From an uncultured Gammaproteobacteria bacterium (GTDB lineage: Bacteria > Patescibacteriota > Microgenomatia > Daviesbacterales > UBA10151), in contig CAZWRN010000005.1 in the NCBI GenBank assembly GCA_964636275.1, forward strand, positions 1 through 60,494: a DNA stretch of 60,494 nucleotides. The letters run 5' to 3'. Shown one piece after another: positions 20,001 to 54,025 of this stretch. Numbering within the stretch: the first letter of the stretch is position 1; each line of letters begins with the position of its first letter. The notes beneath the pieces are model-generated. The model worked only from the letters and a program-made list of their open reading frames with translations, had not been told where the DNA came from and made no database searches. A program made the position numbers and the translations under genes.

Positions 20001-20719
20001 CGGATATTACACAGGGTTTGCCACGTGTTGAAGAGCTGTATGAGGCACGGGTACCAAAAGCAGTGGCCCCAATTGCTGAAATTGCAGGTAAAGTAACCAT
20101 CTCAGAAACTGAAGAAGGTACAGTAGTTCGGGTTCGCACAACATCTAAACCTCATACTGAGAGAGAATACGCTATTCCAAAAAATGCGACCTTACTGGTA
20201 AATGATGGTGACACTATCGAAGCTGGTACTCAAATAATTGGTGGTCATTTGGATATTAGAGAAGTTTTGCGAATTCAGGGGCTACGAGCAGCTCAGCGAT
20301 ATATCGTTGATGCAACTCGTGAAGTGTATGAATCTCAGGGTGTGCAGATCAACGAAAAGCATTTTGAAGTGATCGTACGAAAGATGTCTGATAAAGTTCG
20401 TGTTGAGTCACAAGGTGATACAGTATTGCTTCCAGGTGAAGTAATCAACCGAACCAAATTTGAAGAAGAAAACACTCGGATTTTGGCTGAAGGTGGTGAA
20501 CCAGCAACTGCTGCAGTGATCATCTTGGGTATTACCAGAGCTTCACTTCAGACTGAAAGCTTCTTGTCAGCTGCCTCATTCGTTGAGACAACTACAGTCC
20601 TTTCAGAGGCTGCAACTACTGGAAAGATTGATAAGTTGCTTGGATTGAAAGAAAATGTTATTATAGGACGTCTGATACCTACGAGCGAAGATAGAGCGAA
20701 GCTCAACCAAGTTGCTTAG
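17027..20719 (+). CDS. rpoC: RNA polymerase beta-prime subunit
   Basis: Zn-finger [33 protein letters not shown]. Confidence 0.99.
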
Positions 20720-20828
20720 GTATTAGATCAGACGTCCTTAACCTTGAGGTTTGTAAAAACCGAAAGGAGTTATAGGTCGACTAATTCCAACAAGTGAAGA
20801 TCGAGCAAAGCTCAATCAAGTAGCTTAA
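20661..20828 (+). other. 109-nt insert with synonymously recoded duplicate of the last 18 rpoC codons
   Basis: TTATAGG direct repeat (20661/20770); [18 protein letters not shown] encoded twice; 12-bp antisense arm. Confidence 0.9.
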
Positions 20829-20957
20829 TGGTTTAGAACACTGCAAAGTTTTTTAACTTTGTAGAGTAATCGCCTAAAAGCGATGAAGGGTTTTTTAGAA
20901 TTACTTTTGTATTCTTCAGATCCTTCATTTGCTTTCAGAAAATTAGGAAATTATAAA

Positions 20958-21380
20958 ATGCCGACGATTAATCAATTAGTTAAAAAAGGACGATCAAAAG
21001 TAGTCAAGAAAGTGAAGGCTACCGCTTTGCGACGTTCTTACAACGGATTACACCGGGTTTATAGCAGTACATCAAATCCTCAAAAACGGGGAGTTGTGAC
21101 ATTGGTTCGAACTATGACTCCAAAGAAACCTAACTCAGCTTTGCGAAAAGTGGCTAGAGTCCGACTTTCCAACCGTACTGAGGTAACAGCCTACATTCAG
21201 GGGATTGGGCATGATTTAGCTGAGCACGGTATCGTTTTAGTTCGAGGCGGACGTGTTAAAGATTTGCCAGGTGTGAAATACCATTTAGTACGAGGCAAGC
21301 TCGATTTGGGTGGAGTTCAAAAACGAACAACCTCCAGATCAAAATATGGTGCTAAAAAACCAATGGCTAAAGCAGCCTAA
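20958..21380 (+). CDS. rpsL: 30S ribosomal protein S12
   Basis: [28 protein letters not shown]; start moved to ATG 20958. Confidence 0.99.
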
Positions 21381-21507
21381 AAGAAAGGAATAACCAAGAA
21401 ACAAGATACAAGTACCAAACAAAAACCATTTAATCAATTAAATAATTATTAAATTGAAAATTGTTTGGAGAACTTGAATAATTGGAAACTTGATTAATTA
21501 ACTAAAA
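21381..21507 (+). repeat. Heptamer-periodic hairpin spacer (CAAG/CTTG type)
   Basis: aaccaag aaacaag atacaag ... gaacttg aataattg gaaacttg; preceded by AAGAAAGGAA. Confidence 0.7.
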
Positions 21508-21981
21508 ATGCGAGGAAGAAAAGCAATCAAACGAATAGCTCTGCCAGATCCGATCTATAACAGTCGGGTTTTGACCAAGCTGATAAATAAAATTATGTTG
21601 GATGGTAAAAAAACCATTGCGCAATCTTTGGTTTATAAAGCTATGGCCGAGATTGAAAAATCTGGTAAAAATCCTATGACTGTCTTTGATACAGCCATGG
21701 CTAATATCTCTCCAAAAATGGAAGTTCGACCACGACGAGTTGGTGGTGCTTCTTATCAGGTACCAGTTGAAGTAAGAGGAGATCGAAAAGAATCGTTAGC
21801 AATTCGATGGTTGGTAGACGCTGCTCGAAAAAGAGGTAATGGTCAGTACAAAACATTTGCCGCTAAGCTGGCAGCTGAGATCCAAGATGCAGCAAATGGT
21901 GCAGGAGCTGCTGTACGAAAGAAAGAAGATACATTGAGAATGGCGGAGGCGAATAAAGCTTTTGCCCACTTCAGATGGTAA
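21508..21981 (+). CDS. rpsG: 30S ribosomal protein S7
   Basis: [24 protein letters not shown]. Confidence 0.99.
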
Positions 21982-22049
21982 GCTAGTGGTGCAAAACCTT
22001 TGATTTCTCCTTCGTCGAAATTAAAGCCTTCGCGCATTTCCGCTGGTAA
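21954..22049 (+). other. 68-nt insert with synonymously recoded duplicate of the last 8 rpsG codons
   Basis: TAAAGC direct repeat (21954/22022); KAFAHFRW* encoded twice; antisense arm plus 10-bp hairpin. Confidence 0.88.
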
Positions 22050-22078
22050 ATTTCTTTTACAACTGGATCAAGTATCCT

Positions 22079-22104
22079 AAGCCTCCTTGTGGGGCTTTTT
22101 ATTT
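22079..22104 (+). terminator. Intrinsic terminator after rpsG and its duplicate end
   Basis: AAGCCTC-CTTGT-GGGGCTT followed by a T-rich tract. Confidence 0.7.
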
Positions 22105-22182
22105 GTTCAAACAAGTCAGGTTGGTGTCCGGACATTCCAAGATTTATACTATAAAATGTAAGATATAATTCTGGTTTATAAG

Positions 22183-22211
22183 TTGACTTTTTTTGAAGCA
22201 CAAGGTAAGAT
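22183..22211 (+). promoter_or_regulatory. Promoter of the GreA-N gene
   Basis: TTGACT-N17-TAAGAT. Confidence 0.7.
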
Positions 22212-22276
22212 TTACATTCCTAAACAGGTTACTGAGACCCCGAATAGGGGTTTTTGCTTGTTAGGACAATCTAATT

Positions 22277-22537
22277 ATGACTAAGCCAATTGACGAAAAA
22301 TTACTCCGACAAAAGCTGGAGATGTGGACAAAAAAAGTTAACGATCTAGAAAAAGAATATGAAGTAACCATGGTTGCTCGAGGTGAAGCGGCTCGTGAAG
22401 GTGATTTGCGAGAAAATGCCGCTTATCAGATGTTGACTGAAAAAGGTGAATTCATTTCAGCTCAAATTGGAAACACTAAAAAGATTATTGTCGAATTAAA
22501 ATCCCAGCTAGGTGAAGAGTTGTCCGAAGTCGCTTAG
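22277..22537 (+). CDS. GreA/GreB N-terminal coiled-coil domain protein (no C-terminal domain)
   Basis: ARGEAAREGDLRENAAYQ matches the Gre acidic tip; only 86 aa. Confidence 0.8.
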   Translation: MTKPIDEKLLRQKLEMWTKKVNDLEKEYEVTMVARGEAAREGDLRENAAYQMLTEKGEFISAQIGNTKKIIVELKSQLGEELSEVA

Positions 22538-22553
22538 CTGATATAGTTTGTGA

Positions 22554-22582
22554 TTGACTTGAAGCTAAATTTAGGTTAATAT
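22554..22582 (+). promoter_or_regulatory. fusA promoter
   Basis: TTGACT-N17-TAATAT. Confidence 0.65.
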
Positions 22583-22625
22583 ACCCGTATAAGTCCTCTG
22601 AGGAGGATTTTTTTATAATCAAGAT

Positions 22626-24767
22626 ATGGCATCACAAAATAAAACAAAAAGAGATTTTCCATTAAATCAAATCCGCAATATCGGTATTATTGCGCATATT
22701 GACGCCGGTAAAACAACTACGACTGAACGAATCCTTTTCTACACTGGTCGAACCTACAAAATTGGGGATATTGACGATGGTACAACTACTACTGACTGGA
22801 TGGAGCAAGAAAAAGAACGAGGTATTACTATCGTATCAGCGGCTATCACTACATTTTGGACTCCAAAGAGTGGTCCTTTTAAAGATCAAGAATTTCGAAT
22901 CAATTTGATCGATACTCCAGGTCACGTCGATTTTACTGTTGAAGTAGAGCGATCACTCCGTGTACTTGATGGGGGTGTAATCGTTTTGGATTCAGCTTCA
23001 GGTGTTCAGTCACAGACTGAAACTGTCTGGAGGCAAGCTGATAAATATGGAGTTCCTCTGATTGCTTTTTCCAACAAAATGGACGTTTTGGGTGCTGACT
23101 TTTTAGGAACTATTCAATCTGCTCGTGATCGGCTTGGTGCAAATGCATTAGCTTACAACTTACCAATTGGATCTGAAAATGATTTTAAAGGAATTGTTGA
23201 CCTTTTGACTAAGAAGGCCTTTATTTGGCTGGGGGATGAAACCGGCGCTAAATTTGAGGAACGAGAAATTCCTGAAGATATGGTTTCAGAAGTTGAAAAA
23301 CACCGAGAAAAATTAGTTGAAGAAATTGCTGCAACCGATGAAGGTTTGATGGAAAAATATCTTAATGGGGAAGAGCTTTCGATCGATGAATTAAAAGCAG
23401 CTTTGCGACAAGCAGTAATCTCTAAAAAGATAGTCCCTGTTTTGGCTGGATCTTCTCTACGTAACAAAGGTGTTCAACCGATGCTTGATGCAGTTATGGA
23501 GTTTTTACCTTCTCCACAAGATATTCCAAGTGTAAAAGGTGTTATTCCTGAGACTGGTGAAGAAAGAACGCAAGAAAATACTAAAGATGCACCTTTGGGG
23601 GCTTTAGCCTTTAAAATTCAGATTGATCCACACGTTGGACGACTTACCTATGTTCGTGTTTATTCCGGAACCCTAAAAGCAGGATCAACTATTTATAACT
23701 CGACTAAACAGGTTAAAGAGCGAGTAGGTCGTGTGCTTTTAATGCACGCTAATGAACGGGAAGAGATTGATGAAGCCTACGCAGGAGAAATTGTGGCAGT
23801 GGTTGGTTTGAAAGATACTATCACTGGGGATTCATTGGTAAACGAAGGAAATCCATTAGTTTTGGAATCCATTACTTTTGCTGAGCCGGTGATTTCCCTG
23901 GCTATTGAACCAAAAACCAAATCTGATCAGGAAAAGTTGGCTTTAGCTTTACAACGACTGGCCGAAGAAGATCCAACATTCCGGGTTAAGGCTAACGCCG
24001 AGACCGGTCAAACCATCATTTCTGGAATGGGTGAGTTGCATCTGGAAATTATCGTGGATCGCATGAAGCGAGAGTTTAAAGTGGAAGCAAATATTGGTGA
24101 ACCACAAGTCGCTTATAAAGAGACGATTACCATGCCAGCTCAGGGTGAGGGTAAATACATCCGACAAACTGGTGGTCGAGGTCAATATGGTCACGCTATG
24201 ATTAAAATTGAGCCACTGCCACGAGGGACAGGACGTGAATTCATTTCCGAAGTTGTTGGGGGTAGGATCCCACGTGAATTTATCGCACCTATAGGCAAAG
24301 GTATTGAAGAAAAAGAGGATAGTGGATTGTTGGCTGGTTTCCCTGTTGTTGATGTCAAAGCGACTGTATATGATGGTTCATTCCATGATGTTGATTCTTC
24401 AGAGGTAGCCTTTAAGATCGCGGGAAGTATGGCTTTGGCTGATGCTGCGCAAAGAGCGGGATTGATCCTGCTTGAGCCAATTATGAAGGTTGAGGTTTCA
24501 ACACCTGAAGAGTTTATGGGGGACTTGATCGGTGACCTATCTTCAAAAAGAGCTCAAATTTTGGGGACTGAAAAACACGGAAATTCATCGATTATTAACG
24601 CTTTGGTTCCGTTAGCTGAATTGGGTGGGTATATAACGGCAATTAGATCGATGTCCCAAGGAAGAGCAACCGCTTATATTGAGCCATCTCATTATGAAGA
24701 GGTTCCCGCCAACATTACTCAAAAAGTTGTAGCTGCTTCTGGTTTTACGGGCCGAGTTGAACACTAG
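22626..24767 (+). CDS. fusA: Elongation factor G
   Basis: [31 protein letters not shown]. Confidence 0.99.
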
Positions 24768-24922
24768 TACTATAGTATTTATTTAGATTATCCCCAAAAT
24801 AAGATTTTTAATATTTCTTTTTAAAACCAGTCTATTGCATTTTAATTAAAGCTATAGTATATTTACTAAATCAGCTTGTATTTTGAGCTGTTTTTTCTTC
24901 GGACGTAGCTTAAAATAACCTA

Positions 24923-24951
24923 TTGACAAGCTAAGAAGAATACGGTAAATT
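24923..24951 (+). promoter_or_regulatory. tuf proximal promoter (second candidate TTGCAT-N17-TATATT at 24835-24863)
   Basis: TTGACA-N17-TAAATT. Confidence 0.7.
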
Positions 24952-24978
24952 ATCAGAACCTAACAAGGTAATAAAATT

Positions 24979-26154
24979 ATGGCAACATTTGATAGATCAA
25001 AACCACACGTAAACGTCGGAACCATGGGTCACGTTGATCATGGAAAGACAACATTAACTTCAGCTATCACTAAAGTATTGGCTGATAAAGGAAAAGCAAC
25101 CTTCCGCGCTTATGAAGATATCGACGGTGCGCCTGAAGAAAAGGCTCGCGGTATTACCATCAACATTTCTCACCAAGAATACGAAACAGAAAAAAGACAT
25201 TATGCTCACATTGATATGCCTGGTCACGCTGACTATATCAAGAACATGATTACTGGTGCAGCTCAAACTGACGGTGCTATCTTGGTTGTATCAGCTCCAG
25301 ATGGACCAATGCCTCAGACCCGTGAGCATTTGCTTTTGGCTAAACAGGTTGGTGTACCAGCTATCGTTGTATACCTCAACAAGTGTGACATGGTTGATGA
25401 TGCTGAGCTTTTGGATTTGGTTGAAGAAGAAGTCCGAGATCTTTTGAAGAAATATGAATATGATCCAAATTCTCCTATTATCCGAGGATCAGCCAAAAAA
25501 GCTCTTGAAGGTGATGCAGATGCCGTAAAATCTATCGAAGATTTGATGAACGCTGTTGACGAATGGATTCCAACACCGGCTCGAGAAAAAGATAAACCAT
25601 TCCTGATGGCTGTTGAAGATGTTTTCTCTATTAAAGGCCGAGGAACAGTTGTTACTGGAAGAATTGAAAGAGGCGTTGTTAAAATCAACGAAGAAATTGA
25701 AATCGTTGGAATTAAACCTACTACTAAATCGGTTGTAACTGGTATTGAAATGTTCCACAAACAGCTTGATCAAGGTGAAGCTGGAGACAATGCAGGTGTA
25801 TTGCTTCGAGGTATTGAGAAAGATGATGTAGAAAGAGGACAGGTATTAGCAAAGCCAGGATCTATCACTCCTCACTCTGAATTTGAATCAGAAGTCTACA
25901 TTCTTTCTAAAGAAGAGGGTGGAAGACATACTCCATTCTTTAAAGGATACAGACCACAATTCTATATTCGAACAACAGATGTAACTGGTGAAGTAACTTT
26001 GCCAGAGGGTGTTGAAATGGCTATGCCAGGTGATACAGCTAAGTTTAATGTTAAGCTGATCACCCCAGTGGCTATGGAAGAAGGACTTCGATTTGCTATC
26101 CGCGAAGGTGGAAAAACAGTCGGAGCTGGAGTTATTACCAAAGTTGTAAAATAA
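24979..26154 (+). CDS. tuf: Elongation factor Tu
   Basis: [32 protein letters not shown]. Confidence 0.99.
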
Positions 26155-26171
26155 ATTTGGTAGTCTTCAAT

Positions 26172-26196
26172 AAGGGGCCCGAAAGGCCCTTTTTTT
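26172..26196 (+). terminator. Intrinsic terminator after tuf
   Basis: GGGCC/GGCCC stem plus T7. Confidence 0.85.
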
Positions 26197-26277
26197 GTGA
26201 ATATAGCAATTTTGTGCCTAAGTGTGTTAGAATACATGCAGTTAAGAAGGCAGCACGTTAAAAGGAAGTGATTTTAT

Positions 26278-26586
26278 ATGGCAAAAGGACGAATTAGAGT
26301 ACGACTTAAATCATACGACTATAGAGTACTAGACGCTACTTGTGAGCAGTTGCTTGATACTGCTTTACGAACAGGTGCTAAAATTGCCGGACCTATCCCA
26401 CTTCCAACTAAAAGATCTACAATAACAGTTCCTAAATCTCCATTTACAGATAAAAACTCACAAGAAACTTTTGAAATAAGAGTTCATAAAAGAATCGTGG
26501 AAATCATTGAACCAACGGATAAGACTATTGATTCTCTCATGCACCTAGAGCTTCCAGCCGGTGTAGACATCGAAGTTAAGATGTAA
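26278..26586 (+). CDS. rpsJ: 30S ribosomal protein S10
   Basis: [29 protein letters not shown]. Confidence 0.99.
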
Positions 26587-26613
26587 TTTTATTTACGAAA
26601 AGAAATTAGTTGC

Positions 26614-26635
26614 AACCACCGAAAGGTGGTTTTTT
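26614..26635 (+). terminator. Intrinsic terminator after rpsJ
   Basis: AACCACC-GAAA-GGTGGTT plus T tract. Confidence 0.85.
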
Positions 26636-26643
26636 ATTGCCTA

Positions 26644-27025
26644 CGTCATTTTGAGGAGCGAAGCGATGTAAGAATCTTAATCAATTATGTCTCTATAAAG
26701 GTCAGTGAGTGAAGGATTAAATTTTTTGATTAGCTGCGCTTTCTTTTTACGAGAATACTTCTTTAACTGTTGTTCCCTTTCGACCATTGAATGAGCTGAA
26801 CCAATGATTTCATAATATAGTAGATCATGACATTTGTATCTTTTCGTAAATCCTTCGAATTGTTCATTTTTGTGTTGCCAAATCTGCCTGCCAAGTTGCT
26901 TGATGATCCAACGCAAAGAACTGTTCTAGTGAAATTGCTAACAATGTAAACTGAATAAATTTTGTTTTTCATGTTTTAATTAGATCATGACGCGTATATA
27001 CTTTGTAAGTTCGCTCATGATGACG
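26644..27025. mobile_element. REP-like (CGTCAT...ATGACG) cassette enclosing a GIY-YIG gene
   Basis: Left arm CGTCATTTTGAGGAGCGAAGCGATGTAAGAATCT; right arm AGATC...CGCTCATGATGACG; terminal 6-bp inverted repeat. Confidence 0.5.
26677..26972 (-). pseudogene. Frameshifted GIY-YIG nuclease (UPF0213/YhbQ-like)
   Basis: YSVYIV..LCVG in one frame joins WQHK..GFTKRY..LLYYE..REQQLK in another; one base missing near 26883. Confidence 0.8.
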
Positions 27026-27085
27026 GTTGAGGGTTTATTATATAAACTAACTTGATGCATGCCGGCCGGCTGATTGCATTGTTAA

Positions 27086-27343
27086 TTAGGCTGCTGCCTG
27101 TTCCTGAAGAAATCCAGTGATTTCACTCATACGAGACTGAAAATTTTGAACTTCTTCTGGAAATAAAACAACTGAATTTCTTTTAGCAGGCTGCCCAGTC
27201 TCAACTAAACGAGATTCAGTTATTTTTAAGTATCGTTTGTTGTTGGAAGCTTCTCTGATGTCAAAGAAATATGTTTTCTTACCGCAGTTTAAAACTGAAG
27301 ATTTAATAGCTTTTTTTGGTTCTGTTTGATCCAATTCACTCAC
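27086..27343 (-). CDS. DUF3276/PUR-like single-stranded nucleic-acid-binding protein
   Basis: KTYFFDIREASNNKRYLKITESR...RNSVVLFPEE. Confidence 0.8.
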   Translation of the reverse strand: MSELDQTEPKKAIKSSVLNCGKKTYFFDIREASNNKRYLKITESRLVETGQPAKRNSVVLFPEEVQNFQSRMSEITGFLQEQAAA

Positions 27344-27622
27344 CCCCTTTCCTTAAATGTCGTTACCCTTGAGTTCTAAAAGTTAAACCTGACCAATCAA
27401 TGCTTACTTGATGAGTTTTCTCGAATTTTATTCTTTGGCTTAACCCTTGAATATGTAACTCGCTTGAAAATTGTAGCGAGTTACATGCATCTGTCAAACT
27501 TGATTTGTAGTTAAATCTGAATATGACAGCTGTAGTGAACTCTCCATTAAAATACCCGAATAAAACCCTACTGTCAAGAGATTAATTTGAATTTGTTTTT
27601 ATGAAGATATATACTGCTCCTG

Positions 27623-28387
27623 ATGGAAATATTTTGGATTGTCTTAGCGGTGTTAGCTATATTCCTATTTTTTTCTTCGGTGCGGATTGTACAAGAGTAT
27701 GAGCGGGCGGTTATTTTCTTTTTAGGCCGATGTACAGGTGTCAGGGGTCCAGGGTTGATTCTTTTAATTCCTATATTGGAGTCGATGCAAAAAGTGACAT
27801 TGAGAACAATCACGATGGATATTCCTGCTCAGAAGATTATTACCAAAGATAATGTTTCGATTGATATCTCTGCTGTGGCTTACTATCACATTATTGATCC
27901 TAAAAAATCTGTGATTGCAATTGAAGATGTTTATGACGCTGCCAATCAAATTAGTCAAACAACGGTTCGTAATGTGGTTGGTCAATTTACACTTGATCAA
28001 TTACTTTCGGATCGGACTAAAGTAAATGAGCAGATTCGGAAGGTGATTGATGTTCATACAGAGCCTTGGGGTATTCAGGTAAGCATTGTTGAAATTAAGG
28101 ATATAGTTTTACCGGAAAATATGCAGAGGGCGATGGCTAAAGAAGCGGAGGCTGAAAGAGAGAGAAGAGCTAAAATCGTGGCTGCTGAAGGTGAATTACA
28201 GGCTGCAGAAAAGCTAGGTTTGGCTGCTGATGTGATGCAGAAACATCCAGTGGCTTTGCAGCTTCGAACTTTGCAAACAATGGCTGAAATATCGGTGGAA
28301 AAGAATTCAACAATTATATTTCCGGCTCAATTTATGACTACGGTCCAAGAAGCTATTAAAATGTTGAAAACTGATTCTATTAAGTAA
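27623..28387 (+). CDS. SPFH/stomatin (band 7) family protein
   Basis: ERAVIFFLGR, TKDNVSI, AMAKEAEAERERRAK, ALQLRTLQT. Confidence 0.93.
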   Translation: MEIFWIVLAVLAIFLFFSSVRIVQEYERAVIFFLGRCTGVRGPGLILLIPILESMQKVTLRTITMDIPAQKIITKDNVSIDISAVAYYHIIDPKKSVIAIEDVYDAANQISQTTVRNVVGQFTLDQLLSDRTKVNEQIRKVIDVHTEPWGIQVSIVEIKDIVLPENMQRAMAKEAEAERERRAKIVAAEGELQAAEKLGLAADVMQKHPVALQLRTLQTMAEISVEKNSTIIFPAQFMTTVQEAIKMLKTDSIK

Positions 28388-28408
28388 TCTCTTTAAAATA
28401 CCTATAGC

Positions 28409-28593
28409 TTGCAATTAGCTTCAATTCTGTGTTAAAATTACGAAAGAACTGAATGATTACGTCAGGATAGTTTTTACAGTTTTAAAAAAATCAGTAAGTT
28501 GTGCGTCCTCCGATGGGATACGACAATTGAAACAGGCACATTTTACTGAGTGAGAGCCCGCAAGGCCTCACTTTTTTTGTTGTTAAAGGCATT
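28409..28593 (+). promoter_or_regulatory. rplC promoter and structured leader with terminator-like hairpin
   Basis: TTGCAA-N18-TAAAAT (extended -10); AGTGAG..GCC/GGC..CTCACT plus T7 at 28549-28578. Confidence 0.6.
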
Positions 28594-29421
28594 ATGATCA
28601 ATACATTAATTGGTATTAAAAAAGATATGACTTCAGGTTATGACCAGCGTGGTAGACGTGTGGGTGTAACTAAAATTTCTGTGCCTTCAAATTTCATTAC
28701 TCAGGTAAAGACTTCTGACAAAGATGGCTACAACGCTGTACAGATTGCGACAGGTAGTAAAAAGAGTGTTCTCAAACCACAACGTGGTCATTTTAAAAAA
28801 GCCGGTGTCGCAGAGACTATGCGTTACATCGCTGAAGTACGAACTGAGGAAGTAGCAGATTTTACAGGAGGCCAGGAGATAAAACCGGCCTCTGTTTTTA
28901 AAGTTGGGGATATTGTCAAAGTTACCGGAGTTAGTAAAGGAAAAGGGTTTCAGGGTGGAGTAAAACGACACGGTTTTCATGGCGGACCAAAAACTCACGG
29001 TCAGTCAGATCGACATCGAGCTCCCGGATCTATTGGTTCTGGTACCACTCCAGGTCGAGTTTATAAAGGTAAAAAGATGGCTGGTCACATGGGTTCTGAG
29101 ACAGCAACTGTTCGTAATCTGGAAGTGATTGCGGTAGATCGAAAAGAAGGTGTTTTAGTTGTTAAGGGTGGTGTTCCAGGACATATTGGTTCAGAGCTTC
29201 GAATTACTAAACTAGGTGTTTTGAAGGGATATACTCCACCACCTGAGCCAGAAGAGGAAGAAGAAACTCCTTCTGATGTTGAACAGATGGCCGGAGTAAC
29301 TGAAGAGCAGGCTCAAGAAGAAGTACCAGCAGCTGAAATCGTAGAAGCCGTTGAGGCTGCAGATACTCCTGCTGAAGAAGTAAAAGCAGAAGATACTTCA
29401 GTCGAAGAGGAGGCTAAATAA
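28594..29421 (+). CDS. rplC: 50S ribosomal protein L3
   Basis: KGKGFQGGVKRHGF, GRVYKGKKMAGHMG; acidic tail. Confidence 0.99.
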   Translation: MINTLIGIKKDMTSGYDQRGRRVGVTKISVPSNFITQVKTSDKDGYNAVQIATGSKKSVLKPQRGHFKKAGVAETMRYIAEVRTEEVADFTGGQEIKPASVFKVGDIVKVTGVSKGKGFQGGVKRHGFHGGPKTHGQSDRHRAPGSIGSGTTPGRVYKGKKMAGHMGSETATVRNLEVIAVDRKEGVLVVKGGVPGHIGSELRITKLGVLKGYTPPPEPEEEEETPSDVEQMAGVTEEQAQEEVPAAEIVEAVEAADTPAEEVKAEDTSVEEEAK

Positions 29422-29426
29422 TAGCT

Positions 29427-30155
29427 ATGGCAACTAAACAAGTAAAGACAGAAAAAGTTGAAGTAAAAGCAGAAGCTCCTAAAGTTGCTGTAAAAACAGC
29501 AAAAACTGCTGGCCTGACAGTTACTACTTATTCTGTTGGTGGTAAAGAAGCTGGCAATTTGGAATTGCCGAAAAGTATTTTTGAAGGTCCAGTAAATAGT
29601 GCATTAATTGCTCAAGCCATGCGAGTGTATATCAATAATGAAAAAGGTCATTATTCAAATACTAAAACTCGAGGTGAGGTAACTGGTTCAACTAGAAAGA
29701 TTTACAAACAAAAAGGGACTGGTAGAGCTAGACATGGAAGTATTATGGCACCAATCTTTGTAGGGGGAGGTATCGCTTTGGGGCCTAAATCTAGAATTAC
29801 CAATATGGAGTTACCAAAAAAGATGAAAAAAGCTGCGCTGGTCGCTGCTTTACGGGAGAAATTGAATACAAATGAGTTGAGTGGGGTTGATTTGGGTAAA
29901 TTGACCGGTAAAACCAAAGAAGTGGGTAATTTCTTAAAGGGAGTTAATAAAAAAACAGCTTTGGTTGTGGTTGATGGATTGAATGAAATGGTTCAAAGAG
30001 CTACCCGAAATGTTCAGGGTTTGTCAGTAATGACTGCTACTGAGATAAATGTTTTTGAAGTTATAAAGCACCAGAGTGTGTTTATGACTCAAGAAGCCGT
30101 TGTAAAGTTGGAAGAAAGAATGGCCGGTAAGAAAGTTGAGGAATCAAAAAAATGA
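29427..30155 (+). CDS. rplD: 50S ribosomal protein L4
   Basis: KQKGTGRARHGS, GGGIALGPK. Confidence 0.98.
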   Translation: MATKQVKTEKVEVKAEAPKVAVKTAKTAGLTVTTYSVGGKEAGNLELPKSIFEGPVNSALIAQAMRVYINNEKGHYSNTKTRGEVTGSTRKIYKQKGTGRARHGSIMAPIFVGGGIALGPKSRITNMELPKKMKKAALVAALREKLNTNELSGVDLGKLTGKTKEVGNFLKGVNKKTALVVVDGLNEMVQRATRNVQGLSVMTATEINVFEVIKHQSVFMTQEAVVKLEERMAGKKVEESKK

Positions 30156-30637
30156 GAGCTGTTATCTTAAAACCTTTAATTAATGAGAAATCAATGACTT
30201 TGGCTAAAACAGATTTTTATACTTTTTTGATCGATCTTTCAGCATCAAAAGATCAGGTGGCGAAAATAGTTCGTGAAAAATTTGGAGTAACTGTGTTATC
30301 AGTTAAAACTGTTACTATTCAACCAAAAACTAAAAACCAGAGAACTCGTCGAGGCACTTATACGACAGCTAAAACAAAAAAAGCGATCGTTCAGGTTGGT
30401 AAAGGTCAGCGAATTGCTTTGTTTGAAGAAGCTACAAAAGAGCCTGAGGAAGAAGTAGAAGTGAGAACTGCAGAGGGTGAGAAAGTAACTGAAGTAAAAG
30501 AGAAAAAAAGTTTACTGAAAGGTACTAAAGTAAAAATTGAAAAAGCTGCGACAGGTAAAGTGGCAGATAAAGCTGAAGTAGCAAAAGAAGAGACTCGGAA
30601 GCAATCGCAGAAACAATCAGAGAAAGGTGGAAAATAA
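30152..30637 (+). CDS. rplW: 50S ribosomal protein L23
   Basis: KPLINEKS, KKAIVQV; long Lys/Glu tail. Confidence 0.96.
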   Translation: MRAVILKPLINEKSMTLAKTDFYTFLIDLSASKDQVAKIVREKFGVTVLSVKTVTIQPKTKNQRTRRGTYTTAKTKKAIVQVGKGQRIALFEEATKEPEEEVEVRTAEGEKVTEVKEKKSLLKGTKVKIEKAATGKVADKAEVAKEETRKQSQKQSEKGGK

Positions 30638-30649
30638 GAGTAAGGTAGT

Positions 30650-30711
30650 GCTTCGACTCGCTACGCTCGCTCAGCATGACAAATTGAATGAAAATTATAT
30701 TCAATTTGTCA
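30650..30711. repeat. REP-like half element plus perfect 13-bp inverted repeat
   Basis: GCTTCGACTCGCTACGCTCGCTCAGCATGAC; TGACAAATTGAAT (30677-89) / ATTCAATTTGTCA (30699-711). Confidence 0.65.
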
Positions 30712-30727
30712 AAAAGCAAAAGATAAT

Positions 30728-31549
30728 ATGGCATTAATAGAGTACAAAGAGAAAACCAATACTAGAAGATTTAGCTCTCGAATTGAGAAGCCAAAAAAGA
30801 CTGGTAAAAAGATTAAAGCGTTGCAGACTTTGCTGAAAAAGCACGCTGGTCGTTCTAAAGGTCGGGTTACCGTGAGACATCAGGGTGGACGACACAAAAG
30901 ACAGTATCGATTGATCGATTTTAAGCGAAATAAGTCAGGTGTAGAAGGTAAAATTGAGGCCGTAGAATATGATCCAAATCGAAATGTTGATATCGCTTTG
31001 ATCAACTATAGTGACGGCGAAAAAAGATATATTTTGTTGCCAGGTGGAATGAAAAAAGGCGATACTGTAGTAGCTGGTGACCGGGTTGAAGTACGAACTG
31101 GAAATGCGATGAAACTGAAAAGTATGCCAGTTGGTACTTTGGTTCACAATGTTGAACTAACACCAGGTCGAGGTGGTCAGATTGGAAGAAGTGCGGGAAC
31201 TAGTTTGATTATTCAGGCTAAAGAAAGTGGCTATGCACACTTGAAAATGCCTTCAGGAGAGATTAGAATGGTCTCTTTGGAAGCTATGGGTACGGTTGGG
31301 GTACTTGGTAATGAAGAATGGAAAAATGTCGTATTGGGTAAAGCTGGAAGATCACGACATATGGGTATTAGACCAGCTGTTCGGGGTGTAGCTCAGGATC
31401 CTCGCTCACACGCTCATGGTGGAGGTGAAGCGAAATCTGGAGTTGGTCGAAAGAGTCCAATGACTAAATACGGCAAGAAAGCTGTTGGAAAGACTCGAAA
31501 TAAGACTAAATGGACAAATAGATATATTGTTAAAAGGAGAAAGGCATAA
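30728..31549 (+). CDS. rplB: 50S ribosomal protein L2
   Basis: YRLIDFKR, EYDPNR, GKAGRSRH, HGGGE. Confidence 0.99.
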   Translation: MALIEYKEKTNTRRFSSRIEKPKKTGKKIKALQTLLKKHAGRSKGRVTVRHQGGRHKRQYRLIDFKRNKSGVEGKIEAVEYDPNRNVDIALINYSDGEKRYILLPGGMKKGDTVVAGDRVEVRTGNAMKLKSMPVGTLVHNVELTPGRGGQIGRSAGTSLIIQAKESGYAHLKMPSGEIRMVSLEAMGTVGVLGNEEWKNVVLGKAGRSRHMGIRPAVRGVAQDPRSHAHGGGEAKSGVGRKSPMTKYGKKAVGKTRNKTKWTNRYIVKRRKA

Positions 31550-31552
31550 ATT

Positions 31553-31837
31553 ATGGCAAGAAGCTCGTATAAAGGTCCATATGTGGACGAAAAATTGATG
31601 AAAAAAGTTATGGCACAGAAAAATGGTGCTCCAAAAGTGTCCATCAAAACATGGGCTCGAAGAAGTACTATTCCGCCTGAGTTTGTGGGGCATACTTTTA
31701 TGGTTCATCAAGGTAAAAACTTTATTACTGTCTATGTTTCTGAAGCCATGGTAGGACACAAACTCGGTGAGTTTGCTCCAACCAGAACTTTCAAAGGACA
31801 TGGAAAGATGACTGATAAATCAACATCAAAGACATAA
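31553..31837 (+). CDS. rpsS: 30S ribosomal protein S19
   Basis: [23 protein letters not shown]. Confidence 0.99.
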
Positions 31838-31913
31838 AAGGAATGATAAGTCGCAAGTGACTAGAGTCTAGGAAGACAACCTTGATTCTTGACTCTTGCC
31901 ACTAGAAACTAAA
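31838..31913 (+). repeat. Heptamer-periodic hairpin spacer
   Basis: tgataag tcgcaag tgactag agtctag ... cttgatt cttgact cttgcca ctagaaa cta. Confidence 0.8.
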
Positions 31914-32351
31914 ATGGAATATATAACGATACAGAAGAATATTACACAGTCACCTCGAAAGGTGCGACTAGTGGCTGATATGGTCAGAAAAATGGATCCA
32001 TATCGAGCATTGGATGTTTTGCAGTTTACAAACAAAGCTGCTGCACTTCCTTTGGCTAAAGCGATTAAATCTGTTTTGGCAAATGCAGGTAATGCTGAAG
32101 GTTTGAGTTTTGTCAGTATTCAGGTAAATGAAGGTCTGAAGATGAAAAGATATCGAGCAGGTACTGCTGGTCGAGGTCGTGGTCGTCCATACAGACGTCG
32201 AATGAGTCATATCAAGATTGTGGTTTCTGATGAGGGAATGGTAAATGTACCAGTTACTATGCCAGCACCTAAAGTAGAAACTTTTGAAAAAGTTGAAGCA
32301 ATTGAAGCAGCTGAAATTAAAGAAGTAAAGGAGGATAAAGCTAAGAAATAA
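31914..32351 (+). CDS. rplV: 50S ribosomal protein L22
   Basis: QSPRKVRLVAD, RRRMSHIKIVV; start moved to ATG 31914. Confidence 0.97.
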   Translation: MEYITIQKNITQSPRKVRLVADMVRKMDPYRALDVLQFTNKAAALPLAKAIKSVLANAGNAEGLSFVSIQVNEGLKMKRYRAGTAGRGRGRPYRRRMSHIKIVVSDEGMVNVPVTMPAPKVETFEKVEAIEAAEIKEVKEDKAKK

Positions 32352-32395
32352 TAATTGGAATACTTGATTATTGTTTCTTGGATACTTAATTAAAA
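32352..32395 (+). repeat. Partial heptamer spacer (3' arm type)
   Basis: taattgg aatacttg attattg tttcttg gatactt. Confidence 0.5.
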
Positions 32396-33037
32396 ATGGG
32401 ACAAAAGATACATCCAATTGGTTTTAGACTTGGTGTGGGTTCTCCTTGGGAAGCCAGATGGTTTGCTCCTGGGAAAAAATATCAGCAAAATCTGATGGAA
32501 GATATTAAAATCAGAAATTTGTTGATGAAAAAATTGCGACCGGCTGGTATTTCAAAAATTGAAATTGAACGAGCTGTAAGCAAGTTAAAAGTTATTTTGC
32601 ATGTTTCACGCCCTGGTGTTTTGATTGGTCGGGGTGGAAGTGGTTTGACTGATTTGAAGAAATACCTGATGAAACAGTTGGGTGTCAAAGAAGAAAGTAA
32701 TCTAGAGATTGCTCCAATGGATGTTAAAAATCCAGATATGTCAGCTTATTTGGTTGCGCAGTCAGTTGCTGAACAGCTAGTTCGACGAATGCCTGCGGCT
32801 CGAGTGATGAATCAGACTTTGGATCGTGTTATGCACGCCGGGGCTAAAGGTGTGAAAGTAGTGTTGTCTGGACGAATTGGTGGAGCTGAGATTGCTCGAC
32901 GAGAATCAAAGTTTGCTGGAAGCATTCCACTTCATACTTTGAGAACAGATATCGACTTTGCGGTATATCCAGCGTTGACTAAATCTGGTTATGTTGGTGT
33001 GAAAGTTTGGATCAATAGAGGGGAGAATAAGATATAG
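32396..33037 (+). CDS. rpsC: 30S ribosomal protein S3
   Basis: MGQKIHPIGFRLG, SGRIGGAEIAR, GVKVWI. Confidence 0.99.
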   Translation: MGQKIHPIGFRLGVGSPWEARWFAPGKKYQQNLMEDIKIRNLLMKKLRPAGISKIEIERAVSKLKVILHVSRPGVLIGRGGSGLTDLKKYLMKQLGVKEESNLEIAPMDVKNPDMSAYLVAQSVAEQLVRRMPAARVMNQTLDRVMHAGAKGVKVVLSGRIGGAEIARRESKFAGSIPLHTLRTDIDFAVYPALTKSGYVGVKVWINRGENKI

Positions 33038-33080
33038 AGTCTAGTCGCAAGTGACTGGAGTCTAGAAACTAAAAACTAAT
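33038..33080 (+). repeat. Short heptamer spacer
   Basis: agtctag tcgcaag tgactgg agtctag ... ctaaaaa ctaat; shares units with 31838-31913. Confidence 0.7.
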
Positions 33081-33500
33081 ATGCCATTATTAACACCAAA
33101 AAGAGTTAAATTTAGAAAAGCTTTTCGAGGGAAAAGAGGCGGTGTAGCAACTCGAAATAACACTATCTCTTTTGGTACGTTTGGTTTGAAAAGTGAAGAA
33201 GCTGGGTGGGTAACATCACGACAGATTGAAGCTGCTAGACGAGCTATGGCGCGATATACTCAGCGAGGTGGTCGTATTTTTATCCGGATCTTTCCAGATA
33301 AACCGATTACCAAACATCCGGCTGAGGCTCGAATGGGTTCAGGTAAGGGTGACGTGGTGGGATATGTAGCGGTGGTAAAGCCGGGTACTATTATTTTTGA
33401 AATGGGTGCAGTAGCTGAGGATATTGCCAGAGAAGCGATGCGATTGGCTTCGCATAAGATGGCATTAAAAACTAGGTTTATTACGAAAGGAGTAAATTAG
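33081..33500 (+). CDS. rplP: 50S ribosomal protein L16
   Basis: [25 protein letters not shown]. Confidence 0.99.
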
Positions 33501-33574
33501 AGATTAGCAAGTAGAGATTAGAAAATAGTTTAAAAAATCTAATCACTAATTACTAATTACTAATCACTAAAATT
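33501..33574 (+). repeat. Heptamer-periodic hairpin spacer (TAG/CTA type)
   Basis: agattag caagtag agattag aaaatag ... ctaatca ctaatta ctaatta ctaatca cta. Confidence 0.88.
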
Positions 33575-33808
33575 ATGGCTGACAAAATGGATGTAACAAC
33601 TATTAAAAATATGGATACTAAATCTGTTCAGGCAACTGCTCAAAAACTAAGAGGAGAGATTTCTGATCTAATGGTTGATAAAAACTTAAATAAATTAAAA
33701 GATTTAAAATCTATTGATAAAAAAAGAAAAGATTTGGCTAGAGTTTTGACTATCTTAAATCAAAAACAAGTTCTGGAAAAACTTGAAGCTGGAAAGGAGG
33801 CTAAATAA
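33575..33808 (+). CDS. rpmC: 50S ribosomal protein L29
   Basis: Position between rplP and rpsQ; RKDLARVLTILNQK. Confidence 0.92.
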   Translation: MADKMDVTTIKNMDTKSVQATAQKLRGEISDLMVDKNLNKLKDLKSIDKKRKDLARVLTILNQKQVLEKLEAGKEAK

Positions 33809-33810
33809 TT

Positions 33811-34200
33811 ATGATCGGACGAGTTGTTTCAAATAAAACTGCAAAGACAGTGACTGTTTTGGTAGAAAGCCGAAAAAGCCATCCTTTGTACAAAAAAACC
33901 TTTGCATGGAGTAAAAAATATTTAGTTCATGATGAAATAGGTGCTCAGATGGGTGATATCGTTGACATTAAAAAGAGTCGGCCATTTTCTAAAAGGAAAC
34001 ATTGGATGGTAGCAAAAATTGTTGGTCGAGATATTGTACCGATGAATGAAGAAGCTTTGAAAGAAGTCTCTCAGGATGTGATCGAAGAAGTAATGCCGGT
34101 TGAAGTAGAAACTGAAAATGTTGAAGCTGAAGTGATAGTTGAAGATAAAGCTGATGAAAAACCAGCTAAAAAAACTAAAAAAGCGAAGGAGACTAAATAA
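33811..34200 (+). CDS. rpsQ: 30S ribosomal protein S17
   Basis: GRVVSNK, HPLYKK, SRPFSKRKHW; Glu/Lys tail. Confidence 0.98.
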   Translation: MIGRVVSNKTAKTVTVLVESRKSHPLYKKTFAWSKKYLVHDEIGAQMGDIVDIKKSRPFSKRKHWMVAKIVGRDIVPMNEEALKEVSQDVIEEVMPVEVETENVEAEVIVEDKADEKPAKKTKKAKETK

Positions 34201-34203
34201 ACA

Positions 34204-34572
34204 ATGGTACAACACAGATCAGTTTTAAATGTGGCAGACAATAGTGGTGCTAAGAAATTGCAGGTTATCCAGGTTTTGGGTGGATCAGCGAAAAAGAAAG
34301 CTACTTTAGGTCAGTTGGTTGTCGCTGTTGTTAAAGGGGCTGACCCAAATGGTCAGGTTAAAGATCATGAAGTAGTCAGAGCAGTGATTGTACGAACCAG
34401 AAAAGAAGTTGGTCGGACTGATGGTTCTCATATCAAATTTGATGACAATGCCGGAGTAGTAGTTGGTAATGATGGTAATATGCGAGCTACTCGTATCTTT
34501 GGGCCGATTGCCCGGGAAGTTCGAGATGCTGGTTATACTAAGATTGTTTCTTTAGCAAAGGAGGTTTGGTAA
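34204..34572 (+). CDS. rplN: 50S ribosomal protein L14
   Basis: [20 protein letters not shown]. Confidence 0.99.
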
Positions 34573-34576
34573 ACAT

Positions 34577-34885
34577 ATGAACAAAATACGAAAAGACGAT
34601 AATGTGATTGTTTTAACTGGTAAAGACCGTGGTAAAACGGGAAAAGTTTTGCGAGTGATGACTAAAAAAGATCAGGTTTTGGTTGAAGGTGTGAATACCT
34701 ATAAAAGACATGTCAAAGGTCAGGCGCAGATAGAGGGGGGTATTATCGATTTGGTAAAGCCAATCCATATTTCCAATGTGTCGTTGGTCGATCCCAAAAC
34801 AAAAAAGGCTGCTCGAGTGGGCTTTAAAATGAAAGATGGTAAAAAGATGCGGGTTTTTACCAAATCCGGGGAGGAAGTTAAATAA
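34577..34885 (+). CDS. rplX: 50S ribosomal protein L24
   Basis: VIVLTGKDRGKTGKV, IHISNV. Confidence 0.99.
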   Translation: MNKIRKDDNVIVLTGKDRGKTGKVLRVMTKKDQVLVEGVNTYKRHVKGQAQIEGGIIDLVKPIHISNVSLVDPKTKKAARVGFKMKDGKKMRVFTKSGEEVK

Positions 34886-34887
34886 AT

Positions 34888-35433
34888 ATGAATAGACTAA
34901 AACAGAAATATACTGATGAAGTAAAAAACAAACTGCAGGAAGAGTTTGGCATTAAAAATGTCCACGCTTTGCCAAAACTGACTAAAGTTGTTATCAATAT
35001 GGGACTTGCCGAAGCGAAAGATTCTGATTCAGTGCTTGATAAATCAGTAACCAACCTAACAGCAATAGCCGGACAAAAACCTGTTGTGACAAAAGCTAAA
35101 AAATCGATTGCGGCTTTTAAAGTTACTCAAGGGCAGACTATTGGTGTAATGGTGACATTGCGAGGAGAAAGAATGTACGCTTTCTTAGATAAACTGATTA
35201 ACATCGTTTTGCCTAAAGTTAGAGATTTTCGTGGTGTTTCGCCGACTGCTTTTGATGCACAGGGTAATTACAATTTGGGTATGAGAGAACAGGTGTTGTT
35301 CCCAGAAGTTGATTATAAAAATGTCGATAAAATTCGTGGGATGCAGATCACTATCAACACCAATTCTCAGAATGTCGAGCAAGGTCGACGATTTCTGGAG
35401 TTGATGGGTATGCCTTTCATGAAGGTTGCTTAG
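34888..35433 (+). CDS. rplE: 50S ribosomal protein L5
   Basis: VTLRGERMY, RDFRGV, FDAQGNY, GMPF. Confidence 0.99.
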   Translation: MNRLKQKYTDEVKNKLQEEFGIKNVHALPKLTKVVINMGLAEAKDSDSVLDKSVTNLTAIAGQKPVVTKAKKSIAAFKVTQGQTIGVMVTLRGERMYAFLDKLINIVLPKVRDFRGVSPTAFDAQGNYNLGMREQVLFPEVDYKNVDKIRGMQITINTNSQNVEQGRRFLELMGMPFMKVA

Positions 35434-35490
35434 TGAGTGCAATTTGAGATAGTTTGATCTATAATTATAGGTCGGAAGGATAAAGAATAG
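35421..35490 (+). other. 54-nt insert creating an alternative rplE 3' end
   Basis: GAAGG direct repeat (35421/35475); precise removal gives ...MPFMKDKE*. Confidence 0.6.
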
Positions 35491-35564
35491 AGATTAGCAA
35501 ATAGCGATTAGATAATAGTTAATTAATTTAGAAATCTAATCACTAATCACTATTCACTGATAAA
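35491..35564 (+). repeat. Heptamer-periodic hairpin spacer (TAG/CTA type)
   Basis: agattag caaatag cgattag ataatag ... ctaatca ctaatca ctattca ctga. Confidence 0.85.
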
Positions 35565-53946: not shown

Positions 53947-54025
53947 ATAAGTAAACTTGAAGCATCGCATTAGATCGGATTTATCTGTAATTGACTTCAG
54001 CTTATAAAAGTGTAATTATAGGGTT

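Follow-up and report, generated by a model that had tools for sequence, protein, structure and literature searches.

Recoded gene-end duplications with paired hairpins at rpoC and rpsG in a Microgenomates chromosome segment: candidate miniature insertion cassettes

Integrative elements that replace the 3' end of their target gene include the islands targeting the genes of tRNA and transfer-messenger RNA (tmRNA), the streptococcal integrative and conjugative elements (ICE) and integrative and mobilizable elements (IME) at fda, rpsI and rplL, and cis-mobilizable derivatives (CIME). Free-standing endonuclease open reading frames (ORFs) in fungal mitochondrial genes duplicate C-terminal codons, and the 'byp' elements of Magnusiomyces mitochondria are a form of programmed translational bypassing. 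Small hairpin mobile DNA is represented by IS200/IS605 derivatives (palindrome-associated transposable elements, PATEs), by repetitive extragenic palindromes (REP) and bacterial interspersed mosaic elements (BIME) with RAYT transposases, and by integron attC sites. The T4 MobA cassette with the gene 60 insert has an insert-derived divergent homology region, and its endonuclease undergoes progressive loss (10.1101/2022.08.31.505936). Here we describe short duplications of the 3' ends of rpoC and rpsG, each accompanied by two hairpins, in a stretch of 60,494 nucleotides (nt) of contig CAZWRN010000005.1, GenBank assembly GCA_964636275.1, which was analysed at its full length and is hereafter called the window.

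The window is a chromosome segment of the Microgenomates, within the Candidate Phyla Radiation (CPR), and its closest named relatives are Candidatus Daviesbacteria. Its + strand carries, in this order, rpoB-rpoC-rpsL-rpsG, a small GreA_N-like ORF, fusA and tuf, plus the S10/spc ribosomal cluster. Literature searches gave no published description of miniature, enzyme-less, hairpin-only gene-end modules in essential genes of CPR bacteria. With about even confidence, we read the modules as miniature, non-autonomous, gene-end-specific insertion cassettes, which would bring a recoded spare ending and two sense-strand hairpins and would be mobilised in trans. Loci used for comparison are referred to by L numbers.

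Duplicated gene ends at rpoC and rpsG

The rpoC ORF occupies 17027-20719, and its last 59 nt (20661-20719) recur at 20770-20828, at a start-to-start distance of 109 nt. Both copies consist of the same 18 codons and a stop. They differ at 12 nt, and 12 of these 12 differences are silent, the change from TAG to TAA included. The module has the following parts.

20661..20719, + strand: rpoC copy A, with the 7-bp repeat TTATAGG, the last 18 codons and a TAG stop; the rpoC ORF terminates here
20717..20738, + strand: rpoC antisense arm, which pairs back onto copy A
20742..20767, + strand: rpoC second hairpin, CCTT GA GGTTT GTAA AAACC GA AAGG, found once in the window
20770..20838, + strand: rpoC copy B, with TTATAGG and the 18 codons again, followed by a TAA stop and a homologous 3' flank of about 10 nt

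Positions 20727-20738 of the arm pair with 20665-20676 at 12 of 12 nt and positions 20717-20727 pair with 20671-20681; jointly, these pairings close the recoded end and its stop into one long hairpin. The region (146 nt) has a predicted fold of -43.3 kcal/mol with a z-score of -4.09, and none of 200 shuffles folded as well. The second hairpin ends in AAAGGAG, 2 nt upstream of the second TTATAGG.

The relative L087 has a single rpoC end, which aligns together with its downstream region to copy B of the window and the sequence after it. This alignment identifies the 109 nt as an insertion and extends the duplicated unit about 10 nt beyond the stop; copy B is the displaced native end. Set against the end of rpoC in L088, copy B agrees at 23 of its first 24 nt, and copy A at one of eight third positions (read from the alignment). 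The rpoC module was seen solely in the window species, and the third-position identity between its two copies is about 42% by hand count, a value like that of distant relatives.

The true start of rpsL lies at 20958, judged by homology to MPTINQL..., which leaves 238 nt of non-coding DNA 3' of rpoC, as against 4-16 nt in relatives. In public gene calls S12 has 165 aa and starts at 20883 (window 20883-21380; also L001 2412-2909); given the start at 20958, the first 25 codons of that call are translated intergenic sequence. An exact look-up of the 140-aa S12 gave no record.

At rpsG, the S7 ORF occupies 21508-21981 and its last 27 nt recur at 22023-22049, with a spacing of 68 nt. Both copies encode KAFAHFRW* (8 codons and a stop, the asterisk marking the stop), and they differ at 6 nt, all 6 of them silent. 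The parts are as follows.

21955..21981, + strand: rpsG copy A, AAAGCTTTTGCCCACTTCAGATGGTAA, the last 8 codons and stop of the S7 ORF
21985..22001, + strand: rpsG antisense arm, AGTGGTGCAAAACCTTT, which pairs with copy A from the Lys codon on and places the stop codon in the loop
21998..22026, + strand: rpsG second hairpin, CTTTGATTTC...GAAATTAAAG, whose 3' foot is the Lys codon of copy B
22023..22049, + strand: rpsG copy B, AAAGCCTTCGCGCATTTCCGCTGGTAA, in a frame different from that of copy A and with no upstream start codon in its own frame
22079..22097, + strand: terminator-like hairpin with a T run, 30 nt 3' of copy B, which marks the native rpsG 3' flank

Synonymous changes that copy A shows in L086 and L088 are matched by covarying changes in the rpsG antisense arm, and the CTTT of the second hairpin is able to pair with the AAAG of either copy. 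Copy B of rpsG is likewise the displaced native end. A similar hairpin with a T run, as read from the sequence, stands 3' of the last rpsG copy in L086.

Silent changes make up 24% (rpoC) and 17% (rpsG) of the possible single changes, and the probability that all observed differences are silent is about 4e-8 and about 1e-5, respectively; the two ends thus drew apart at a time when both were functioning as gene ends. Scanning all gene ends of the window returned only rpoC and rpsG, plus an unrelated tandem repeat at 53784-53949, with direct-repeat z-scores of 22.5 for rpoC and 5.3 for rpsG. As a control, 1.2 Mb of ribosomal-operon loci from other, unrelated bacteria gave one match among 7,882 ORFs. 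The same rpsG structure is present in five other assemblies (one sample of the Joint Genome Institute (JGI) and four Sequence Read Archive (SRA) runs) in two strain variants, and two of these assemblies extend to rpoC and carry the rpoC structure too. A chimeric assembly, a concern raised in an earlier reading of the bare sequence (the sequence-only reading), is excluded by the agreement of these five independent assemblies.

The same reading had proposed three inserts of one layout, the third of them at rplE:

35425..35480, + strand: rplE end and downstream hairpin, a conserved intergenic sequence with no peptide duplication, outside the phenomenon

Two of the three hold. The 18 nucleotide differences counted at rpoC and rpsG (12 plus 6), none of which changes an amino acid, were recovered in full, as were the antisense arms (20665-20676 with 20727-20738 at 12 of 12 nt; 21985-22001), the second hairpins (20742-20767 and 21998-22026) and the direct repeats TTATAGG and TAAAGC. 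The rplE case is dropped, together with its 5-bp repeat GAAGG. That repeat is the sole element shared there, the would-be copy B reading KDKE* against KVA*, and the end scores at chance level (direct z -0.3, inverted z 0.7). The downstream hairpin AGTGCAATTTGAGAYAGTTTGATCTATAATTATAGGTCG is kept in relatives whose L5 ends in MKIS* and which are without the GAAGG repeat, and it is therefore native intergenic sequence rather than an insert. Chance, as the explanation of such duplications, is accordingly rejected for rpoC and rpsG, on the window and control scans, and accepted for rplE.

The motifs GTTGCTTAG and TTATAGGTCG each occur exactly twice in the window (20711-20779 and 35425-35474), in the same order at both loci: at rpoC where copy A ends and where copy B starts, and at rplE at the gene end and in its downstream hairpin. 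Relatives retain TTATAGGTCG in the conserved hairpin, without GTTGCTTAG, while their L5 ends differ. Kinship of rplE with the rpoC insert was rejected on this ground; the shared pair is treated as a probable coincidence, since relatives keep the second motif only.

The rpsG modules of relatives

Relatives were covered by two samples. The window-clade sample consists of S7 homologues and their contigs and is unbiased as to the state of copy B. The second comes from a search of metagenomes with a codon-degenerate DNA pattern, which returned mostly false positives within the gene (TGGTGG inside S7) and, among the 120 loci listed, at least seven true duplications; these belong to the distant lineages L105, L106/L172, L107, L116, L125 and L214. 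By S7 similarity, the modules are carried by Daviesbacteria-, Woykebacteria- and Curtissbacteria-like clades and by two more, with a patchy distribution, and short modules occur in roughly a tenth of the sampled S7 loci. The modules measure 109 nt at rpoC and 68 nt at rpsG in the window, and about 60-110 nt per unit elsewhere. The number of rpsG copies ranges from 1 to 4, and the duplicated segment starts at the same Lys/Arg codon in every case. A single rpsG end, that is an empty site, is found in L093, L217, L228, L231, L006 and L007. Empty and occupied sites share one codon boundary, both at rpsG and, given the single rpoC end of L087, at rpoC.

Several loci carry arrays. L086, with 90% S7 identity to the window, has three copies, namely A, B (KAFAHFRW*) and C (KVFAHFRW*). 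In L215, the working S7 end is the sequence that forms copy B in L086, and it is followed by the same hairpin as spacer 2 of L086; on this match, L086 is an L215-like allele with one more proximal unit. L094 has two copies and a spacer unlike the others, and the array of L106/L172, seen in two samples, has four copies. Spacers differ within arrays, and those of L105, L106 and L116 form a nested pattern.

Downstream copies are preserved to different degrees. Within the window clade, damaging changes number zero in the window, in copy B of L086 and in L094, one in copy C of L086 and in L229, three in L216 and many in L088. L229 and L230 have the L215-type hairpin and a downstream copy in which TGG is changed to TGA, and L088 retains the arm and spacer next to a heavily decayed copy. 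Further decayed cases are L123, L167 and L180. This decay series would fit relics of different ages. The second repeat is damaged where the copy is decayed, being lost in L088 and L216 and adjoined by a 1-nt indel in L123 and L167. Copies A and B differ at 4-9 of 27 nt (hand count), near the expectation for random synonymous encoding, and the variation of copy B is codon-structured, including a change from CGC to AGA. In L214, the stop of copy B lies 6 nt upstream of the fusA start.

The S7 proteins of L088 and L093 are identical and their DNA is 96% identical, with 6 of the 18 differences in the last 30 nt and unrelated downstream regions; this clustering points to a sharp recombination boundary at the Asn/Lys codons. 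Beyond the first module, L123 (4020-4330, - strand) and the region 3' of copy B in L107 have a conserved structured stretch of about 100 nt (...TAGCTAATCTTCGGAGAAGATATAGC...CTATAGCTACGAGTGGATT). Half a copy of the S7 end (ATTTYMGWTGGTAG) comes next, and L123 has a further hairpin module after it. These extra stretches look like older array layers.

The rpsG insert consists of two adjacent hairpins located exactly between the Asn and Lys codons. Its order is the stop of copy A, an arm complementary to the lineage's own copy A, GCYTTGCGA, a variable hairpin, TCTA, and the AARGC belonging to the next copy. Either repeat is a possible pairing partner of GCYTT, since AAAGCTTT is palindromic. The sequence-only reading had called the inserts wholly unrelated in sequence, which does not apply at rpsG: spacers of distant lineages share the feet GCYTTGCGA ... 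TCTAAAG, and one covariance model detects them. Across five sequences of the second hairpin from two clades, 86.7% of cells are paired and 7 pairs are changed on both sides; the covariation score was reached by none of 500 shuffles, and slid registers collapse. A covariance model built from four of the sequences detects the fifth, independent one, L229, at 45.9 bits, as well as hairpins of the Curtissbacteria type. All its matches with E < 0.01 in about 0.95 Mb lie directly downstream of rpsG. The + strand scores far above the - strand and one U.G pair is invariant, so that the structure belongs to the sense strand, as RNA or as single-stranded DNA.

A hairpin with the stop in its loop as a general feature of S7 was considered and rejected: stems of at least 6 bp occur at 5% of 121 S7 ends and in 1% of shuffles, and about half of these ends bear modules. 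Rfam 15, ribosomal-protein leaders and ribozymes included, gave no match up to E = 1 in 20000-36500 on both strands.

Some modules are more conserved than the genes that carry them. Between L106 and L116, spacer and copy B together are identical at 74 of 80 nt (92.5%), as against 75% for S7 (third positions 55%), with unalignable flanks (P 5e-5). Between L086 and L215 the module is identical at 66 of 71 nt, against 82% for S7 (P 0.007). Since spacer types are very diverse overall, this conservation argues for recent sharing rather than tight constraint.

Explanations of the modules

In the insertion-cassette reading, a module occupies, close to the 3' end of a universal and highly conserved gene, one fixed boundary between codons (between Asn and Lys-Ala in S7, between Ile-Ile and Gly in RpoC) and carries its own synonymously recoded version of the remaining codons and the stop, leaving the essential protein unchanged. 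An arm complementary to the recoded copy places the stop codon in a hairpin loop, and the foot of a second sense-strand hairpin is complementary to AARGC or TTATAGG, the short repeat. The end that belongs to the host gene is displaced downstream, is no longer read, and decays in time. Entry is envisaged as recombination at the repeat of 5-7 bp, with the catalysing enzyme supplied in trans; repeated entry at the same site would build tandem arrays, and clean loss between the repeats would be possible. Selection appears to maintain the hairpins once they are inserted, probably because they shape the mRNA 3' end of the essential gene.

The data show the anatomy, the empty and occupied sites, the arrays, the decay series, the hairpin covariation, the locus specificity and modules more conserved than their host gene; that the modules move, in which direction and by which enzyme, is what we infer beyond this. 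The targets are invariant regions (KAFAHFRW in S7), and the copies differ at silent sites only. The nested array spacers, the composition of L086 as the L215 type plus one unit, and the contrast between module and host identity favour the insertion of foreign cassettes. The proposal of a gene-end-targeting element, minimal or non-autonomous, had already been made in the sequence-only reading and is the part of it best supported by the comparative data, with rplE removed. Its empty alleles were found (L087 for rpoC; L093, L217, L228 and L231 for rpsG); the longer alleles with a nuclease or recombinase were not.

A number of results weigh against insertion of mobile cassettes. Pfam scans of the window ORFs gave no recombinase, integrase, transposase, homing endonuclease or other nuclease, or reverse transcriptase, in keeping with the earlier statement that the inserts hold no mobilising enzyme, and Pfam scans of the ORFs beside modules at other loci gave none of these either; both results are compatible with an enzyme acting in trans. 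No cargo-bearing allele between copies was seen at about 140 S7 loci with 573 kb downstream in total, and no second gene-end copy more than 700 nt away was found in that sequence. The rpoC and rpsG inserts are single-copy in the 60-kb window and not dispersed. A double-stranded DNA circle of 68-109 nt is physically implausible as an intermediate. The pattern used for the metagenome cases required an intact copy B, which leaves the window-clade sample as the sole unbiased one. Simple neutral decay does not easily explain L106, whose two distal copies are perfect and in which a more proximal one is truncated. The similarity of the hairpins follows host phylogeny in rough terms, and vertical descent with constraint is possible. 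Arms and hairpins are intact and covarying where copy B has decayed (L088, L123, L167); the host thus selects for them, which fits a functional RNA element too.

Known classes of small elements were also compared and set aside. A dispersed MITE (a miniature transposable element with inverted repeats), PATE or REP is ruled out by the single-copy, locus-specific nature of the inserts, and the MITEs of Thiomargarita are unrelated to them. An integron attC site does not fit, the feet being GCYTTGCGA ... TCTAAAG(C) and the R''/R' boxes RYYYAAC ... GTTRRRY being absent. The insert borders, read from the sequence, do not fit a group I or II intron or a bulge-helix-bulge. A variable repeat/template repeat (VR/TR) pair of a diversity-generating retroelement (DGR) was rejected since the mismatches are not adenine-specific and the window has no reverse transcriptase: with copy B as template, A stands at 7 of 12 mismatches in rpoC and 0 of 6 in rpsG, and with rpsG copy A as template at 2 of 6. 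Readthrough or frameshifting into copy B was rejected as well, the frame offset from the copy A stop, counted from spacer lengths, being 0, 1 or 2 by lineage and the copy B frame having no start codon.

The rival that survives best, possible though on balance unlikely, is an RNA structure that arose locally and is specific to its locus, with second-order selection retaining the spare end. A direct and inverted duplication would have arisen at the palindromic Lys-Ala-Phe codons AAAGCTTT (rpsG) or at GGACGTC (rpoC), and the hairpins would serve the mRNA, e.g. in 3'-end stability, processing, termination or coupling, or S7 autoregulation. Repeat-flanked hairpins would often be deleted precisely; descendants of such a deletion would need copy B, which, though not read, would stay under purifying selection until the second repeat mutates. 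The covariation and persistence of the hairpins next to decayed copies, their strand specificity with the invariant U.G pair and far lower reverse-strand scores, their restriction as a family to the rpsG locus and their rough agreement with host phylogeny are all as this explanation would have it. So are the differences between copies A and B (4-9 of 27 nt), which lie near random synonymous encoding as long co-existence under selection predicts, the damaged second repeats of decayed copies (L088, L216, L123, L167), and the perfect distal copies of L106 despite its truncated proximal one. However, the rpoC module would have to predate the split from L087, L088, L094, L217, L229 and L231 and then be lost in all of them. 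With the module confined to the window species and its copies nonetheless divergent, a single foreign insertion is simpler than an old local duplication lost in every relative. Local origin also sits poorly with arrays that hold different rather than duplicated spacer types, with a spacer 92.5% identical between hosts whose S7 is 75% identical although spacer types are otherwise very variable, with the minority of S7 loci that carry a module, and with L229, where the repeat of copy B is intact yet TGG is changed to TGA.

Improbable in our estimate is that the modules are scars of full-size integrative elements or of free-standing homing-endonuclease cassettes, from which the body was deleted so that attL, a terminator-like hairpin and attR were left. 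Elements that supply a replacement 3' end or recoded homology are well established, and such an origin agrees with the direct repeats, with a recoded end on the proximal and a native one on the distal side, and with the tandem arrays. Yet the roughly 140 S7 loci and their 573 kb of downstream sequence hold no long allele with an ORF between copies, which makes zero full elements against short modules in about a tenth of the sampled loci. Independent random deletions would moreover not leave the same compact two-hairpin layout, with conserved feet and covariation, time after time.

We also think it improbable that the downstream copy is in use at all, be it because the insert is skipped or because a reversible switch with frequent precise deletion keeps the spare end selected. 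Such use would explain the perfect KAFAHFRW* in copies displaced before deep splits (L105/L106/L116). The first of its two forms is very doubtful taken alone. There, ribosomes would skip the folded insert, taking off at the Lys/Ala or Ile codon and landing at the second repeat, or the insert would be removed from the transcript; both copies would be translated, and both would be under coding selection. Such skipping would be a counterpart of T4 gene 60 bypassing on a cellular chromosome, with an inbuilt fail-safe. The sequence-only reading had likewise offered an RNA structure that lets either ending be used, and this part of it has little support.

The codons at the two borders mostly match, being ATA/ATA at rpoC and AAR/AAR at rpsG in all lineages but L125, where the first repeated codon is CGA against AGG, a mismatch that speaks against skipping. 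The Ala codon after the repeated Lys/Arg is matched everywhere except in copy C of L086. A stable stem-loop begins exactly at the first repeat in all cases, and two adjacent hairpins would bring the insert borders together. The AAAGGAG lying 2 nt upstream of the second rpoC repeat would suit a landing site, but it occurs at rpoC only, and rpsG modules have TCTA or ATT before the landing codon and no element like a Shine-Dalgarno (SD) sequence. Further agreement comes from the codon-structured variation of copy B (CGC to AGA), from L106, in which the decayed copy is the one without the repeat, and from L214, in which the copy B stop precedes the fusA start by 6 nt. Against this, copy A is readable to its own stop and yields the same protein, and the putative take-off codon is followed by ordinary sense codons (GGA CGT..., GCT TTT...) rather than by a stop or a rare ('hungry') codon, the stop coming 8 or 18 codons later. 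The frame of copy B relative to copy A is random, the hairpins persist in several lineages whose copy B is decayed or frameshifted, and neither an Rfam family or ribozyme match nor borders like those of group I/II introns or a bulge-helix-bulge were found.

That chance or an assembly artefact produced the duplications has a negligible probability: chance applies to rplE alone, with its 5-bp repeat, chance scores and hairpin conserved in relatives, and for rpoC and rpsG it is met by independent assemblies that agree, z-scores of 22.5 and 5.3, a control of 1 in 7,882 and an rpsG case present in many lineages.

Other features of the window and comparison with known systems

An ORF of about 80-90 aa between rpsG and fusA (window 22277-22537) has weak similarity to the N-terminal coiled coil of GreA/GreB and is found in many Microgenomates lineages (L006, L007, L088, L105, L106, L116, L217). 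The rpsG-fusA and rpoC-rpsL gaps are hotspots of lineage-specific small ORFs without known function, such as those of 113 aa in L087 and of 106 and 107 aa in L088 and L093. In L228 (1-1440) rpoC is split into five short ORFs, probably through assembly frameshift errors and not biology. The S10 operon is interrupted between rpsJ and rplC (window 26587-28387) by an insertion that consists of about 1 kb lacking any + strand gene and then an SPFH/Band-7 gene (27623-28387). L3 (window 28594-29421) has 275 aa and a Glu-rich C-terminal extension (PEPEEEEE, TEEQAQEE), and similar acidic L3 tails occur in L006-L008. On the - strand, 48413-51172 holds a cluster of a UbiA prenyltransferase, a short SQS_PSY fragment and a phytoene-desaturase-like amine oxidase, which is unusual in a reduced CPR genome, and the ORF at the window edge (59256-60386, - strand) matches only C-terminal parts of the type I restriction R subunit. 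The tandem array at 53784-53949 has a 19-nt unit, CAGATAGATCGGATGAGAT, in 8.7 copies, although a reading as a 9-nt unit is also possible. It begins within the last codons of a PGA_cap-family gene (52692-53810), and ...RSDEIR* recurs downstream in other frames; it is a simple-repeat phenomenon, distinct from the rpoC and rpsG modules.

If mobile, the modules would be among the smallest site-specific insertion elements known, and they would show how DNA equipped with a recoded spare ending can settle, without cost, inside the coding ends of essential genes that are among the most conserved. The displaced ends would then be a dated fossil series for element turnover in uncultured CPR bacteria, and the hunt for the trans-acting enzyme can be posed as a task for phylogenetic profiling. 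Should the hairpins rather be a regulatory structure or serve as a bypass signal, they would add a new cis-element to the str-operon mRNA in a large radiation of bacteria. For gene callers and phylogenomic pipelines, the 3' ends of rpsG and rpoC and the 'intergenic' DNA downstream of them can be mosaic.

Bypassing of T4 gene 60 resembles the present case in its border codons (matched in most of the modules), short untranslated insert, stem-loop at the first border and compact fold and, at rpoC only, in the SD-like AAAGGAG near the landing site. The differences are that bypass is unnecessary here, copy A ending the protein correctly with no stop or hungry codon after take-off, that rpsG is without an SD-like element, and that copy B is decayed in several hairpin-keeping lineages.

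With PATE, REP and attC DNA, the modules share strand-specific imperfect hairpins with conserved feet, a variable middle and no terminal inverted repeats, insertion beside a short specific sequence, and an enzyme-less make-up with action in trans, putative for the modules. PATEs and REPs are dispersed in many copies per genome, each beside a target of 4-5 nt, whereas the modules are confined to one gene end per genome. None of the three duplicates tens of nt of its target, and GTTRRRY is absent and no Y1 or IntI gene was seen here.

Like homing cassettes, the modules target a very conserved stretch of a conserved gene with divergent insert-borne homology and preserve the protein; a small insert can outlast its lost endonuclease on the homing side, and independent insertions recur at one position. 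Unlike those cassettes, no module allele shows an endonuclease ORF, the gene is not split, the module end is an exact peptide duplicate with its own stop, and the hosts are cellular CPR genomes rather than phages or organelles.

Integrative elements likewise have a short identical core at both borders (here TTATAGG at rpoC and TAAAGC/AARGC at rpsG), a proximal gene-end copy that arrives with the insert and keeps the gene intact while the native end lies at the far border, empty and occupied alleles, tandem accretion at one site, and non-autonomous forms. The modules differ from them in measuring 60-110 nt and not kilobases, in being without integrase, cargo and arm-type sites, and in that the whole module is two sense-strand hairpins, one of them made from the recoded gene end. 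Module copies also differ at nearly every synonymous site, whereas att repeats are near-identical. The principle of repairing the gene end is itself known, from integrative elements and from homing cassettes (10.1101/2022.08.31.505936 for MobA).

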